Source: an uncultured virus (IMG/VR IMGVR_UViG_3300033388_007403) (lineage: Duplodnaviria; Heunggongvirae; Uroviricota; Caudoviricetes). Taken from it: 20,000 nt of DNA. Positions 3,307 to 9,854 of this stretch are shown here, one piece after another (position 1 is the stretch's first letter; every line of letters begins with the position of its first letter). The stretch is taken from the IMG/VR virus record IMGVR_UViG_3300033388_007403. One strand, written 5' to 3'. Both the position numbers and the translations under genes were made by a program. The notes below the pieces were generated by a model that had not been told where the DNA came from, made no database searches, and saw only the letters and a program-made list of their open reading frames with translations.

Positions 3307-3606
3307 CTACTTCTTTGCTAACTGCTCATCTTCTATCTGGATCTTAACTTCTTTCAACTCATCCCGATATTTAGTAATAATCTCTAAAAGTCCTTGATAT
3401 AATCTGTAAGATATTTCAGGAAACATTTTAATCTTACTCATATTACTATCTAATATAGAAGCCATAATCACACCTTTATGACTAGTTATACTGATGTTCT
3501 CGACATTATCTAATAATCCATTACAATCATCAATTTCATCAGCAATTTCTAGCCTTTGTTTTTTATTATTTTTACACGCAAAAAAACCAGATGGTTTATG
3601 TCCCAT
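3307..3606 (-). CDS. hypothetical protein (99 aa)
   Basis: ORF overlapping the end of the upstream HNH ORF. Confidence 0.65.
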   Translation of the reverse strand: MGHKPSGFFACKNNKKQRLEIADEIDDCNGLLDNVENISITSHKGVIMASILDSNMSKIKMFPEISYRLYQGLLEIITKYRDELKEVKIQIEDEQLAKK

Positions 3607-4111
3607 TACTACTCTTCAGAATTCTATTACTTATATTTAATTTATCACCAAACGGTGCTACTGTTTTAATTATCCCATTATTAGAATGGGGAAGGGAGAG
3701 TATCTTACTACCCTTCCTATTATTACATTGATCACACATAGTCTGAAGATTATCCAGATGATTAGCTCCACCTTTTGACTTAGGCATTATATGATCCTTT
3801 GTCATAAGCCTTGCTTTTCCTTCAAATATAGCATAAAGATTAAAATGAGTACTATCTCGATCAGATCTACTTGTAAAAGTATCAGCACTGATTATAGTAC
3901 CTTCTAACCCACATCTTGTACATCTCCTGGATCTTTTAAAACACTGAAGTCGTAATGAGTCAATCCTTATAAGGTGCAACGTTCCTTTAATATCTACTTC
4001 AATAGAACCAGCATTAGGATCAACTAGATCTAATACACTTTCAGGTTCATATGACTGTAAGTGGATATATCCATTATACAATATTTCTTCATCAATTATC
4101 TTCAGCATCAT
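3596..4111 (-). CDS. HNH endonuclease
   Basis: CTRC...MTKDHIMPKSKGGANHLDNLQTMCDQCNNRKG HNH motif. Confidence 0.88.
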   Translation of the reverse strand: MMLKIIDEEILYNGYIHLQSYEPESVLDLVDPNAGSIEVDIKGTLHLIRIDSLRLQCFKRSRRCTRCGLEGTIISADTFTSRSDRDSTHFNLYAIFEGKARLMTKDHIMPKSKGGANHLDNLQTMCDQCNNRKGSKILSLPHSNNGIIKTVAPFGDKLNISNRILKSSNGT

Positions 4112-5790: not shown

Positions 5791-5919
5791 TGTGGATACG
5801 GTGTTAGAGAACATATTAAAACTCTACCAATTGAGATATACAGTGCCAGGCACTGCACCAGGACTCGAACCTAGATACTTTGATTTAACAGTCAGATAAC
5901 GTTCACTATTCAACCCACT
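5791..5919 (-). ncRNA. Y RNA (YrlA)-like RNA, copy 2, full permuted tRNA module
   Basis: GTGGGTTGA-N9-GTTATCT...GTATCCAC; order is T arm (CTAGGTTCGAGTCCTGG), then closed acceptor (TGCAGTGC/GCACTGTA), then D arm (CTCAATTGGTAGAG). Confidence 0.8.
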
Positions 5920-5923
5920 TTAA

Positions 5924-5996
5924 TCTCTCTAGAAGGATTCGAACCTTCACCCCACGGCCCCAAACCGCGCGTGCAACCAAGTAACACTTTAGAGAG
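5924..5996 (-). tRNA. tRNA-Pro(TGG)
   Basis: CTCTCTA/TAGAGAG-A; CGCGG-TTTGGGG-CCGTG. Confidence 0.9.
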
Positions 5997-6001
5997 TAAA
6001 A

Positions 6002-6070
6002 TAACGGATACGTTAATACAAAAAAGTTTTAGCCATTTCAAGTAGATAACTTTCTCATTTCAACCCGTTA
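6002..6070 (-). ncRNA. Y RNA-like RNA, copy 3 (minimal, stem only)
   Basis: TAACGGGTTGA-N9-GTTATCT...GTATCCGTTA. Confidence 0.7.
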
Positions 6071-6172
6071 AAATTAAGTAATAAGACAGAATCCAGCTCT
6101 GACATACACTTTCTTATGAAAGTGTGTTTTAATAAAAGATTAAATTAAACTATTATTACTTAATATATTAAA

Positions 6173-6247
6173 TAGCGGAGGATGGATTCGAACCACCGAC
6201 TTTTTGGTTATGAGCCAAACGAGCTGACCAGACTGCTCTACCCCGCG
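6173..6247 (-). tRNA. tRNA-fMet(CAT)-like
   Basis: CGCGGGGTAGAGCAGTCTGGTCAGCTCG; TTTGG-CTCATAA-CCAAA. Confidence 0.9.
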
Positions 6248-6283
6248 ATAAAAATATCTTATAAATAATTAAGGCTGACAATC

Positions 6284-6305
6284 TAACCAGACTGCTCTAC
6301 CCCGT
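6284..6305 (-). pseudogene. 5' fragment duplicate of tRNA-fMet
   Basis: CGGGGTAGAGCAGTCTGGT identical to the 5' part of the tRNA at 6173-6247. Confidence 0.7.
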
Positions 6306-6355
6306 AAATAGCGATATTCGGAATCGAACCGAAGACTCAGACGTATGATTTTTAA

Positions 6356-6427
6356 TAGTAGGGACTGGATTTGAACCAGCATTATCCTTCGTATGAAAAA
6401 GGAGCATTGTCATTATGCTACCCTACC
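6356..6427 (-). tRNA. tRNA(CAT) nested inside the insertion
   Basis: GGTAGGG/CCCTACT-A; CCTTT-TTCATAC-GAAGG; GCTGGTTCAAATCCAGT. Confidence 0.82.
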
Positions 6428-6430
6428 TTT

Positions 6431-7081
6431 TTAAAACAACCATTTATCAGAATTATCTTTTACAAACTCTTTAATCGAACCAAAAATTTGTTGAGCAATT
6501 CTTGTATTATTTATAGATACTGTGCATATACCATAAGGATGTTTTACTTTTGTATTATCATAATATTTACTTTTAAGTGTGCATTTTCTCAAACAACTGA
6601 CAGGTAGTTTTAATTGATTGCACCAATATGACTGAATATCTTCTAATGTTAGATTATTATTAAGATAGTATTGAAAAGTAATGCTAAAATCATTATCTTG
6701 AACATTAAAATATTTACGAAGAAATTTAACAAAATAAGAAATCATTTTAATATCACTATTTGTTAATCTTACATAATTTTTACATTTAGTTCCTTCTCCC
6801 CAGAATAAAGCACATCCAAATGCATATCCTTTATCTTCATTATGAATTTTTTCTCTTCCTTGAGCTTGATACTCTCTTCTTTTGTTCCTAAAATTTTCAG
6901 AATATTTTATATAAGATTTATCTCTCAGTTGTAGTTTCTCTCTTTGCTCATTTGTTAGATCAATATCTCTAACCCACAAACTTACTGAACTCTTAGAAAC
7001 TTTAACACTTTTTGCTATATCATTTAAAGATAATCCTTGTTGCCTTAATTTTCTACATTCTTCTTTTTCTTTTAATTTCAT
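6431..7081 (-). CDS. HTH plus LAGLIDADG-like putative homing endonuclease
   Basis: N-terminal LRQQGLSLNDIAKSVKVSKSSVSLW HTH; GCALFWGEGTK...LTNSDIKMISYFVKFL LAGLIDADG-like segment. Confidence 0.75.
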   Translation of the reverse strand: MKLKEKEECRKLRQQGLSLNDIAKSVKVSKSSVSLWVRDIDLTNEQREKLQLRDKSYIKYSENFRNKRREYQAQGREKIHNEDKGYAFGCALFWGEGTKCKNYVRLTNSDIKMISYFVKFLRKYFNVQDNDFSITFQYYLNNNLTLEDIQSYWCNQLKLPVSCLRKCTLKSKYYDNTKVKHPYGICTVSINNTRIAQQIFGSIKEFVKDNSDKWLF

Positions 7082-7118
7082 TATAAAACCCTTTATTAAT
7101 AGAACTCATATATATAAG

Positions 7119-7145
7119 TTCGACAATAAGGGTTAAATTCCTTTA
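7119..7145 (-). promoter_or_regulatory. TAAAGG-N16-TCGAA promoter-like motif
   Basis: Recurrent motif upstream of ORF 6431-7081. Confidence 0.6.
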
Positions 7146-7210
7146 ATTATTTTTAAAAATATGAAATCTGTGTGTTAACCGAACTATACCATATCGCTTT
7201 AAAGACCAAC

Positions 7211-7423
7211 AAGTGGATACATTATTAACATTGGACGCTCTGAAGAGCTAAAGTAATCGGTTAGAAGATTTTAAAGTCTCTTTTTTCTACTTTGTACCGG
7301 GGGACTCCACTGATCTCTTCTTTCTTAAGTTCCGTTGTTGGTCTAACTTCCTTTAAGAATTTCCTCAGCTTGTTTTTCCCAGTTTCCAATCAGGATAGAT
7401 AACCAATATTACTCAACCCACTT
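7211..7423 (-). ncRNA. Y RNA-like RNA, copy 4, ~150-nt non-tRNA module
   Basis: AAGTGGGTTGA-N9-GTTATCT...GTATCCACTT; AATATTGG/CCAATGTT covarying stem. Confidence 0.7.
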
Positions 7424-7425
7424 AA

Positions 7426-7497
7426 TAGCCTGAAGCGGTTACGATCCGCCTTCTTCTCATTGAAAGTGAGATATCCTATCCAGTAGACGACCAGGCC
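7426..7497 (-). tRNA. tRNA-Glu(TTC)
   Basis: TCGTCTA D arm; TCTCA-CTTTCAA-TGAGA; T loop variant ATCGTAA. Confidence 0.85.
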
Positions 7498-7551
7498 ATA
7501 ATGTTCTTTTTTGATGAAGCAAGAGAAACTGAATAAGAACCTGCTCTCAAA

Positions 7552-7623
7552 TACCCTGCTGAAGAATCGGACCCCAATCGTAACCTTGAGAGAGTTACAT
7601 CCTACCGATTAGAAGAGCAGGGC
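7552..7623 (-). tRNA. tRNA-Glu(CTC)
   Basis: GCCCTGC/GCAGGGT-A; TAACT-CTCTCAA-GGTTA. Confidence 0.82.
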
Positions 7624-7632
7624 TTATTATTT

Positions 7633-7661
7633 ACTATACCATATTTTTACTCACTTGTCAA
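7633..7661 (-). promoter_or_regulatory. sigma70-type promoter inside the array
   Basis: TTGACA-17 nt-TATAGT with extended TG. Confidence 0.75.
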
Positions 7662-7677
7662 GTAAAAAATAATTTAA

Positions 7678-7761
7678 CAGATGGTAAAGGAATCGAACCT
7701 TCAACCCTATCAAGGCTGGCATGGTTTTCAAGACCAATTATCCCCATGGATGCTACCATCT
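7678..7761 (-). tRNA. tRNA-Ser(TGA), shortened D arm
   Basis: AGATGGT/ACCATCT-G; loop CTTGAAA; long variable arm. Confidence 0.82.
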
Positions 7762-8797: not shown

Positions 8798-9541
8798 CTA
8801 TTTTAACCATTTTCTTATTGTGTTATCAGATACCCCATATTTCCTACCAACAGCACAATAATTAGTTTCTTTAATTTCTTTCAAAAGTCCTTCTTTTGAA
8901 GGTCTTTCAACTTTTCTTCTAACTATATGCCAACATTTTTGAGAACAATATTTTGTTTCCCTATTTTTTCCAACTTTTTTTGCTTCAAATTCTTTTTTAC
9001 ACATAGGACAAATTTTTATTTTTCTCTTTTTCTTAGGTCGTCCTTTAGATTTTTTAAACCATATATCTTTTAATTTTTTTATCCATTCTTCATCTAAATA
9101 GGCGATCTCAGACTCGAACTGAGGACCTTCTGAATGTAAACCAGAAATGCTTCCAACTGCACCAATCGCCTGTTTTTTAACTAATTCTTTTCTCCAATAG
9201 ATATCACTCTCCCATATATCTATTACTTTCCATCCATTTTTTTCCAAAAATATTCTTTTATTAATGTCTCTTGTTATATTGAATTGTTGAGATTTTGTTA
9301 AATTATCTTTCTGATATAGTTTCGGATTAGCATGCCAATAATCTCCCATAACTCTAAATACAATCTTTTTTTCAGGGAATACATAATCACAAATATATCT
9401 TTGGATAGGATATTGGAAATAAATTATTGCGTTTTCATCATCACATATTGAAAAAATAGTTTTAATGTCTTCTGGGAATTTTACTCCGTAGCCAAGAGAA
9501 GTTAAAATATCTCTAAATTCTCTTTCTGGTTTGGTCCACAT
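8798..9541 (-). CDS. Vsr/DUF559-like endonuclease with Zn finger and HTH, containing an in-frame tRNA
   Basis: TKPE...QYPIQRYICDY...GDYWH...GWKVIDIWESD; CPMC...YCSQKC; AVGRKYGVSDNTIRKW. Confidence 0.8.
   Translation of the reverse strand: MWTKPEREFRDILTSLGYGVKFPEDIKTIFSICDDENAIIYFQYPIQRYICDYVFPEKKIVFRVMGDYWHANPKLYQKDNLTKSQQFNITRDINKRIFLEKNGWKVIDIWESDIYWRKELVKKQAIGAVGSISGLHSEGPQFESEIAYLDEEWIKKLKDIWFKKSKGRPKKKRKIKICPMCKKEFEAKKVGKNRETKYCSQKCWHIVRRKVERPSKEGLLKEIKETNYCAVGRKYGVSDNTIRKWLK
9099..9171 (-). tRNA. tRNA-Val(TAC) embedded in a CDS
   Basis: AGGCGAT/ATCGCCT-A; TCTGG-TTTACAT-TCAGA; CTCAG-TTCGAGT-CTGAG. Confidence 0.88.
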
Positions 9542-9591: not shown

Positions 9592-9725
9592 TGTGGATAC
9601 GGTGTTAGAAAACATAATTTTTTACTGTGCTAACCATTACACTAATCCCTGATTATTCGGGGATGGAGGAATCGAACCCCCACTAAATCTCCAATAGATA
9701 GATAACGTTTTCAAATCAACCCACT
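9592..9725 (-). ncRNA. Y RNA (YrlA)-like RNA, copy 6, full permuted tRNA module
   Basis: GTGGGTTGA-N9-GTTATCT...AACACCGTATCCAC; T arm GGGGGTTCGATTCCTCC, then ATCCCCGA-ATAA-TCAGGGAT, then D arm GTGTAATGGTTAGCAC. Confidence 0.8.
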
Positions 9726-9728
9726 TAA

Positions 9729-9854
9729 TGGATGTAGTTGGGTTCGAACCAACGACCTCTCCGTTATATTGTATAAATTATTTTTTCAACAAAAATAATT
9801 TAAATGTTATAGAATAATTGCAGCGGAGTGCTCAACCAACTGAGCTTCACATCC
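9729..9854 (-). tRNA. intron-containing tRNA-Ile (probably GAT), intron ~9768-9820
   Basis: GGATGTG/TACATCC-A; CTCCG-CTG[53 nt]ATAA-CGGAG. Confidence 0.82.

Follow-up and report, generated by a model that had tools for sequence, protein, structure and literature searches.

What kind of element separates the two halves of a tRNA(CAU) gene in an uncultured tailed phage, and what becomes of the gene that it splits? The question is raised by a 20,000-nt stretch of IMG/VR record IMGVR_UViG_3300033388_007403 (Caudoviricetes; the window, that is, the whole stretch of DNA analysed), in which a tRNA(CAU) gene is interrupted in its anticodon loop by an insert that carries an open reading frame (ORF), P0001, together with a second, complete tRNA(CAU) gene. 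The insert is probably an 811-816-nt mobile cassette, made up of a free-standing nuclease gene and a tRNA gene of the same anticodon, inserted into a native tRNA(CAU) gene at its anticodon loop. Judged from the sequences compared here, and with a probability of about 0.7, it would be a cassette of the homing type that destroys the tRNA gene it targets and provides a replacement for it, the nuclease cleaving the intact target and the nested copy being immune to it. Three observations carry this reading: (i) the outer gene is split into two halves that can still fold together around an insert that has no ribozyme core, (ii) the same cassette is present at the same junction in other phage-like contigs, and (iii) an uninterrupted form of the outer tRNA is present in a public sequencing run, X1, as a single contig of either DNA or RNA.

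The split tRNA gene and its insert

The window is AT-rich and includes 31 tRNA genes, every one on the minus strand. Its best relatives in an alignment-based scan of viral contigs are IMG/VR contigs of up to 548 kb, and the array around the cassette is a tRNA array of the huge-phage type. Within this array, ARAGORN (long introns allowed, default threshold) calls a 74-nt tRNA-Met(cat) at 6309..7198 on the minus strand with an 816-nt insert. The 5' half of the outer gene (7160..7198, minus strand) provides the acceptor strand, the D arm, the 5' strand of the anticodon stem and the loop through TTCATA, and has homologous 5' halves in two related loci, L117 and L001. The 3' half (6309..6348, minus strand), which is part of the same call, provides the duplicated TCATA, the loop C, the 3' strand of the anticodon stem, the variable loop, the T arm, the acceptor strand and the discriminator A. 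The joined halves pair at 7/7 positions of the acceptor stem, 3/4 of the D stem (one A.C), 5/5 of the anticodon stem (one G.U) and 5/5 of the T stem, with all 12 pairs that span the insert (acceptor 7, anticodon stem 5) intact. TCATA is present at both junctions (7164-7160 and 6348-6344); counted at both, it leaves the outer halves 811 nt apart. The original prediction for this locus, of two tRNA halves 811 nt apart that join into a cloverleaf and of a TCATA duplication at the junctions, is thus borne out by the ARAGORN call and by the letters themselves.

Read along the minus strand, the insert opens with an AT-rich spacer (7082..7159) that starts with TTTTTAA and has AAAGGG placed 8 nt ahead of the ATG; the spacer is 72% identical to that of L117 and 77% to that of L001, where shuffled sequences give a mean of 62% and a maximum of 72%. 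The ORF that follows, P0001 (6431..7081, minus strand), is intact with its own start, stop and ribosome-binding site, and encodes 216 residues with an N-terminal helix-turn-helix (HTH), a long helix and a single C-terminal LAGLIDADG-like domain. Three nucleotides past its stop codon begins the nested, complete tRNA(CAU) (6356..6427, minus strand), recognised by ARAGORN as Met(cat) and by Rfam at 56.3 bits. The nested tRNA has 83% identity to its counterpart in L001, compared to only 55% to the outer tRNA of the window, with which it shares the loop and none of the five anticodon-stem pairs. Both this complete and divergent second tRNA and the lack of a group I or group II core had been noted at the outset. 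About 90 nt of the insert lie outside the ORF and the nested tRNA, and no group I, group II or other ribozyme is matched by Rfam in 5800-7700 at E <= 10.

Two other features ascribed to the insert at the outset fared differently. The 7-nt inverted termini are present, as the insert ends in TTAAAAA (6349..6355, minus strand), the reverse complement of its first 7 nt, and such ends occur at only 5 of 19,189 position pairs at that spacing (3/76 among arms composed of A and T alone). The ends could extend the anticodon stem; however, they are missing from the corresponding junctions of L117 (in L001 there is no 3' junction with which to compare them), and are rejected as a functional feature of the element on this ground. 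The promoter-like motif at 7178..7149 matches at only 9 of 12 positions, and the region holds 13 such sites against 8.0 +/- 2.6 in shuffled sequences, an excess of no more than about two standard deviations; an internal promoter in the cassette is thus unsupported. A strong promoter-like site (11/12, TG-extended) is situated upstream of the array segment at 7661..7633.

Recurrence of the split layout

Split tRNA genes were surveyed in 117 sequences using ARAGORN at its default threshold, with only those calls retained whose halves touch no intact tRNA. Six calls span a nuclease ORF on its own strand, none spans one on the opposite strand and one lies elsewhere. A nested tRNA of the same anticodon is present in four of the six ORF-spanning calls, namely those of the window (Met), L038 (Met), L009 (Thr cgt) and L011 (Gly tcc), and in the fifth, L006, Gly-like halves surround a nested Gly(gcc). 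The sixth, L095, is probably false, as is a Leu(gag) call in L157, both being GC-rich with acceptor mismatches; the Leu(cag) calls of L002/L003, made only at -ps95, and a second split call in L117, Lys(ttt), are likewise probably false. Relaxing ARAGORN to -ps90 and -ps85 yields 53 and 144 split calls off the ORF and 3 and 5 on the opposite strand, many of them chimeric or unsupported; thus, only default-threshold calls and hand-checked matches of acceptor strand and T arm were used. A 7/7 acceptor complement is weak when taken alone, with about 0.5 chance matches expected per 480 nt and one such match seen in L009.

L117, whose nuclease is 61% identical to P0001 at the amino acid level, provides the closest parallel to the window in an independent assembly: a tRNA-Met(cat) is split by an insert of 817 nt, TCATA stands at either junction, and the nested tRNA(CAU) overlaps the end of the ORF. 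The hand check of orphan T arms with complementary acceptor strands added three loci, L031 (Val-like halves around a nested Val(tac)), L007 (isotype ambiguous) and L072, in which a tRNA-Ile(gat) at 2132-2784 is split in its anticodon loop by a truncated ORF of the family (residues 47-214 matched). In total, nine loci have an orphan half on either side of the nuclease gene, and the nested tRNA has the anticodon of the outer gene in 5/5 readable cases (window, L038, L009, L011 and L117). The outer Gly(tcc) of L011 has 89% identity to a neighbouring Gly(ccc) and 55% to the nested Gly(tcc), so that the outer gene looks native and the nested gene foreign.

It is hardly credible that misassembly of a repeat-rich tRNA array produced the junctions. 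The window is a contig of the metagenome type, and a search of sequencing runs returned none with a high share of it, the best match having 0.06 of the sampled words (no RNA run is among the matches), which leaves some room for misassembly; however, the same architecture is found in the independent assemblies L117, L038, L009 and L011, and the 5' junction is also present in L001.

A putative nuclease family that accompanies tRNA genes

The P0001 family is large, unnamed and almost always located beside tRNA genes. It comprises 107 clusters in the protein collection and 36 viral loci in the viral contig collection, with at least 561 confirmed matches in the metagenome collection and at least 561 in the species-genome collection. 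A scan of the viral contigs with P0001 as a single protein returned no close relatives, whereas the alignment-based scan did find relatives. In a blastn search of 50,697 phage records with 5800-7700 as the query, nothing but the conserved initiator-like tRNA was matched. A tRNA is present in 95 of the 98 unique loci with a complete family ORF, and 58 of the 98 have a same-strand tRNA no more than 200 nt upstream or 60 nt downstream of the ORF.

A further 80 loci from species genomes belong mostly to Chloroflexota and Actinomycetota metagenome-assembled genomes, with one Nanoarchaeota, and show the same few tRNA partners: 24 loci are paired with Gly(tcc), 19 with an opposite-strand Glu(ttc), 11 with Met(cat) and 10 with Val(tac). 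In these taxa (L118-L196), which include Anaerolineae of the Chloroflexota and Gaiellaceae and Solirubrobacterales of the Actinomycetota, the family occurs commonly on the chromosomes and usually stands beside a single tRNA. In a tree of 96 proteins (quick maximum-likelihood search, no bootstraps), the nuclease clades follow the isotype of the partner, with Glu(ttc) in 14 of 15 rows of one clade (support 99) and Gly(tcc) in 18 of 22 rows of another (support 96); the six-row group that holds the window is paired with Met(cat) in five rows and with Ile(tat) in one.

The product of the ORF

LAGLIDADG homing endonucleases are marked by a motif helix that ends in a metal-binding Asp or Glu followed by Gly, and by an alpha-beta-beta-alpha-beta-beta-alpha core. 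They make site-specific double-strand breaks with 4-nt 3' overhangs, and the single-motif enzymes act as homodimers. P0001 is predicted, from its sequence and its structural model, to combine an HTH with a single divergent nuclease domain of this type. Glu96 and Gly97 are invariant in all 48 aligned family members, within the consensus motif LYWAEGxK, and the best match of the family profile in the PDB is the second LAGLIDADG motif of I-DmoI (E 0.003). The AlphaFold 2 (AF2) model of P0001 (predicted local distance difference test score, pLDDT, 93.9) has two LAGLIDADG proteins as its top two VIA-align matches, 7qsu (Z 7.5) and I-DmoI (Z 6.4; root-mean-square deviation 2.7 Å over 82 residues). 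Five further LAGLIDADG matches are found at Z 4.7-5.6, with WhiA, I-Vdi141I, PI-PkoII and E-DreI at Z 4.9-5.6. A relative, P0106, combines this HTH in one protein with Pfam LAGLIDADG_3 and LAGLIDADG_1 domains, and the P0001 motif aligns with the P0106 motif that falls inside the LAGLIDADG_3 match; in another, P0107, the same HTH is fused to an HNH domain. The invariant Glu96-Gly97, the I-DmoI profile match and the P0106 fusion uphold the initial description of the ORF as HTH-LAGLIDADG-like. A GIY-YIG family is absent from the Pfam and PHROGs scans of P0001.

It is very unlikely that the ORF encodes a DNA-binding regulator, or a domesticated LAGLIDADG-like protein similar to WhiA, and that another agent moved the segment. 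Consistent with such a protein, Pfam detects HTH families alone, all at the N-terminus of P0001, the sources label relatives of P0001 as 'transcriptional regulator' or 'transposase', and WhiA, a LAGLIDADG relative that is not a nuclease, is among the fold matches (Z 5.1-5.6). By contrast, the acid at the metal-binding position, together with its Gly, is invariant and aligned with the catalytic motif of I-DmoI, the same HTH is fused to double LAGLIDADG and to HNH nucleases, and the placement in target genes with a pattern of presence and absence is typical of homing nucleases.

Uninterrupted, diverged and incomplete forms of the outer gene

An allele of the outer gene that lacks the insert had been proposed as a check, and a candidate was found in X1. 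Contigs of this run were placed on 5900-7700 at a likeness of at least 80 (parts left uncovered in X1 carry no meaning), and one of them connects position 6343 to 7160 and omits exactly the 816 nt in between; 5 letters at the joint could belong to either flank, and each flank is at least 61 letters long. The contig extends past the ends of the tRNA by at least 22 and at least 26 nt, as deduced from depth bins. X1 also covers part of the HTH region of the ORF, and a second contig of the run carries a different tRNA(CAU) with similar ends. The simplest reading of the joined contig is a related phage with an uninterrupted outer gene, spliced RNA being less likely; the run could be of either kind, DNA or RNA. 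Exact-match scans of the viral contigs with 28 nt of the 3' half and 31 nt of the 5' half gave 0 matches each.

The comparison of the window with L117 is consistent with entry of the cassette into tRNA(CAU) genes that had already diverged. The identity is 72% in the spacer, 72% in the ORF (nt) and 77% in the nested tRNA, compared to 63% and 68% in the outer halves and 57% and 53% in the 60-nt flanks, the last being at the level of shuffled sequences; the order of the neighbouring tRNA genes also differs between the two loci. The anticodon stems of the two outer tRNAs differ by three double changes, each compensatory, and their acceptor stems by two changes on one side only. In L001, the closest relative (74% amino acid identity, same gene order), a foldable 5' half is kept and no 3' half is found, a state that argues, on sequence grounds, for decay of the outer halves. 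L006, L007 and L031 have no usable outer anticodon arm.

The alternative that the insert is removed at the level of RNA and the outer tRNA still used, whether as a protein-dependent intron or as a split tRNA whose halves are rejoined, for example by RNA ligation once RNase P/Z has freed the nested tRNA, is highly improbable. In the window, L117, L038, L009 and L011 the two halves form a perfect fold around the insert, the three double changes leave every cross-insert pair in place, the junction is compatible with position 37/38, and the joined X1 contig could be RNA. However, no ribozyme is matched and the insert has little sequence outside the ORF and the nested tRNA; the 3' half is lost in L001, three loci have no usable outer anticodon arm and L011 is missing two loop bases; the positions of the junctions differ among loci; and the flanks of the joined contig extend past the tRNA ends, unlike those of a processed tRNA. 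In addition, the minimum free energy (MFE) and centroid folds of the 890-nt precursor pair only the acceptor ends, form no outer anticodon stem and include no bulge-helix-bulge (BHB)-like motif, although no search aimed at BHB motifs was run. The archaeal splicing endonuclease is not known from bacteria or their phages. A ribozyme-free tRNA intron of a new kind in bacteria or phages, in which the nested tRNA, excised by RNase P/Z, serves as a processing signal while the halves are held by their acceptor and anticodon stems, trimmed and ligated, keeps a slight probability because the 12 pairs are preserved through three double changes and X1 may be RNA.

A second alternative, which dispenses with a dedicated cassette, is also judged unlikely, with rather more in its favour: the segment would be debris of recombination or segmental amplification provoked by nucleases, the nested tRNA being native and the halves derived from a collapsed duplication. 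Nuclease-free tRNA fragments are indeed nearby (an fMet-like fragment at 6270-6305 of the window and a tRNA-Glu 5' half in L117), 79 orphan T arms are scattered across the loci, and the junction repeats vary in length. In T6, SegB brings about the segmental amplification of a tRNA gene along with its own gene (PMC13096335). Yet the outer and nested tRNAs are only 55-73% identical across the loci and, thus, are not duplicates of each other. Furthermore, the same cassette interrupts a tRNA(CAU) gene of L117, where TCATA again stands at each junction although the gene order is another; outer and nested anticodons agree in every readable case; the exact 816-nt skip is found in another sample; and the nuclease clades track the tRNA isotype.

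Evidence for and against a homing cassette

The picture of a homing cassette that breaks its target and brings a substitute has to be set against several findings that weigh against it. Both halves are present in only 9 of 178 loci (98 unique plus 80), most members of the family merely adjoining a tRNA. L072 holds no nested tRNA, and here either the nuclease gene was inserted alone or the front of a cassette was deleted later. The junctions differ by locus, with repeats of 3, 5 or 6-12 nt and a 2-nt loss in L011, and so no single insertion chemistry is evident. P0001 has no Pfam LAGLIDADG match at E <= 1, and LAGLIDADG models are also missing from the 25 families that its 48 aligned relatives match most often, a result that a divergent member of the group could also give; a phmmer search of P0001 alone against the PDB returned only chance matches, Foldseek of the model against the PDB gave no match at E <= 0.001, and the VIA-align Z scores are all below 8 and interleaved with YjgF-like and OmpA-like folds. 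The joined form is a single contig of depth 2.7 and likeness of at least 80. Given how short the pieces are, the identity gaps that separate the window from L117 are modest, and the outer halves do not clearly exceed the highest shuffle value, 0.71. Finally, 12/12 cross-insert pairs are kept in both loci despite the changes between them, which may be explained by homing into intact but diverged targets, by exchange with intact alleles or by selection on a split tRNA that is still used.

On balance, the selfish element of the original prediction is favoured by the recurrence of the layout, the nuclease-like ORF, the empty site and the decay in L001, and is to be shorn of its inverted termini and promoter motif. 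The protein-spliced intron that had been offered beside it finds little support, the pairing kept across the insert speaking for it and the missing ribozyme match and the lost 3' half of L001 against it.

A possible mechanism

The homing cassette may be pictured as follows. The enzyme, probably a homodimer, would cut the intact outer-type tRNA gene in the anticodon arm, which is an inverted repeat by nature. The break would be repaired from a genome that bears the cassette, with the tRNA halves (about 36-39 bp each) acting as homology arms, and the insertion would destroy the cut site. The nested tRNA, with its five different stem pairs, would escape cutting and take over the lost function; thus, the insertion presumably costs the phage little. 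The outer halves would decay afterwards, as in L001. Because the 5' end of the nested tRNA directly follows the ORF, tRNA processing would cut the mRNA at this point.

Comparison with known systems

Full-text literature searches (subscription journals being outside their scope) returned no description of a cassette of nuclease plus spare tRNA inside a tRNA gene. Several known systems share part of its features.

In its way of working, the cassette is closest to SegB of T4 and T6, without being a member of the SegB family. SegB is a free-standing GIY-YIG homing endonuclease encoded in a phage tRNA cluster, whose recognition element is the T-psi-C motif and whose cuts fall at the 3' ends of tRNA genes (PMC2330249, PMC13096335). 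For T4 segB, tRNA processing is proposed to cut the mRNA between the last codon and the stop codon (PMC2330249). Similarly to SegB, the nuclease gene of the cassette has no intron or intein around it, resides in a phage tRNA cluster in the orientation of the tRNAs, is expected to target tRNA genes and to be inherited together with neighbouring tRNA genes; both ORFs end at a tRNA 5' end, the nested tRNA starting 3 nt past the stop codon in the cassette. By contrast, segB is situated between tRNA genes and encodes a GIY-YIG enzyme, whereas the P0001 ORF lies inside a split anticodon loop, is accompanied by a tRNA that shares the outer anticodon and encodes an HTH with a LAGLIDADG-like domain that is not GIY-YIG.

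In its logic, the cassette is closest to mobile endonuclease ORFs of mitochondria that carry a replacement part of the gene they enter, again without being a member of that group. Such ORFs are described in atp6 of Allomyces macrogynus (PMC3630166, citing Paquin et al. 1994) and in atp6, atp9, cox2 and nad3 of Glomus (PMC3630166). In these genes, as in the cassette, the endonuclease ORF is inserted with a foreign, divergent copy of the part that it displaces, while the native part is left behind unused; the native part resembles that of close relatives and the inserted part does not, which parallels the 89% versus 55% identity in L011. The mitochondrial elements replace a C-terminal, protein-coding part in frame, whereas the phage cassette supplies a whole RNA gene and breaks its target in the middle of the anticodon loop.

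I-Ssp6803I exemplifies the homing endonucleases encoded by group I introns that reside in the anticodon loop of bacterial tRNA genes. Such introns, some with homing endonuclease genes, are known from bacterial tRNA anticodon loops, tRNA(CAU) genes included (PMC3984707), and thus share with the cassette a mobile, nuclease-bearing insert at this site. Unlike the introns, the cassette has no ribozyme core and would be neutral to its host through a spare gene, not through splicing. I-DmoI shares with P0001 a motif helix that ends in an invariant acid-Gly, consistent with the profile and fold matches (E 0.003, Z 6.4); P0001 differs in its single domain, its extra N-terminal HTH and a 38-residue helix. 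The split and intron-containing tRNAs of archaea (Nanoarchaeum, Caldivirga) likewise have halves that lie apart in the DNA, with a break in or near the anticodon loop, and are joined by a BHB endonuclease and a ligase with the help of complementary leaders (PMC10714607). By contrast, the predicted fold of the cassette has no BHB motif and L001 has lost one of the halves.

Other features of the tRNA array

Immediately downstream of the outer 3' half on the minus strand is an orphan 5' fragment of an initiator-like tRNA(CAU) (6270..6305, minus strand), broken after loop position 33. It stands about 22 nt ahead of an intact initiator-like tRNA(CAU) (6172..6248, minus strand; ARAGORN and Rfam), with no nuclease gene beside it, and its D and anticodon arms are closer to the L001 copy than to the copy in the window itself. 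The fragment looks like an older scar of the same kind as the cassette insertion.

Incomplete tRNAs are also found in related loci. In L117, a tRNA-Glu 5' half with a break in the anticodon loop (about 2385-2497) is located downstream of the Met cassette and directly ahead of an intact tRNA-Glu(ttc). In L004 and L014, a tRNA-Glu(ttc)-like piece about 56-58 nt past the ORF consists of the anticodon arm, the T arm and the 3' acceptor strand; ARAGORN does not call it, and no matching 5' acceptor strand was found within 500 nt upstream. At 3725-3800 of L001, the place of the missing 3' half, a hairpin with a 7-nt loop could present TTA, an anticodon like that of an ochre suppressor, and no full cloverleaf was found there.

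Elsewhere in the window, a tRNA at 9729-9854 (minus strand; Rfam 49.9 bits, ARAGORN Cys(gca)) is interrupted in its anticodon loop by 53 nt of AT-rich sequence; on inspection by eye this is a long A/T hairpin, which may be the footprint of a lost cassette or a small intron-like insert. Repeated tRNA-like elements at 5835-5925, 9645-9735 and about 7330-7420 (minus strand) start with TTAAGTGGGTTGA...GTTATCT, and two of them end in an orphan T arm. A weak match to a Y RNA-like family (YrlA) at 5801-5909 (23.2 bits, E 0.05) is below the gathering threshold. A tRNA-Ser(UGA)-like sequence at 7675-7760 (minus strand), whose acceptor strands match and which has both a T arm and a long variable arm, is called by neither ARAGORN nor Rfam; its position is that of the tRNA-Ser(tga) of L001, ahead of Glu(ctc). 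Three more nuclease genes lie inside the tRNA array (1557-2246, 3596-4111 and 8798-9541, minus strand), two of which are HNH (phrog_10822, E 8e-48; Pfam HNH_5, E 5e-13), with the third showing weak Vsr/DUF559-like matches and an HNH-associated C-terminus.

Implications

Homing endonuclease genes that reside inside other genes are known to do so in two ways, within a self-splicing intron or within an intein. The cassette points to a third way for RNA genes, in which the element breaks its target and brings a working and presumably uncuttable copy, a logic of break plus replacement that is also that of engineered 'cleave-and-rescue' gene drives. If true, this would explain the tRNA halves and 'Russian-doll' nests that litter phage tRNA arrays, as well as the swapping of tRNA genes between unrelated phages on homology of about 36-39 bp in the tRNA halves. 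It would also account for the co-diversification of the HTH-LAGLIDADG-like family with tRNA isotypes in phages, bacteria and archaea, and the members of this family would be compact nucleases directed at conserved tRNA gene sequences.

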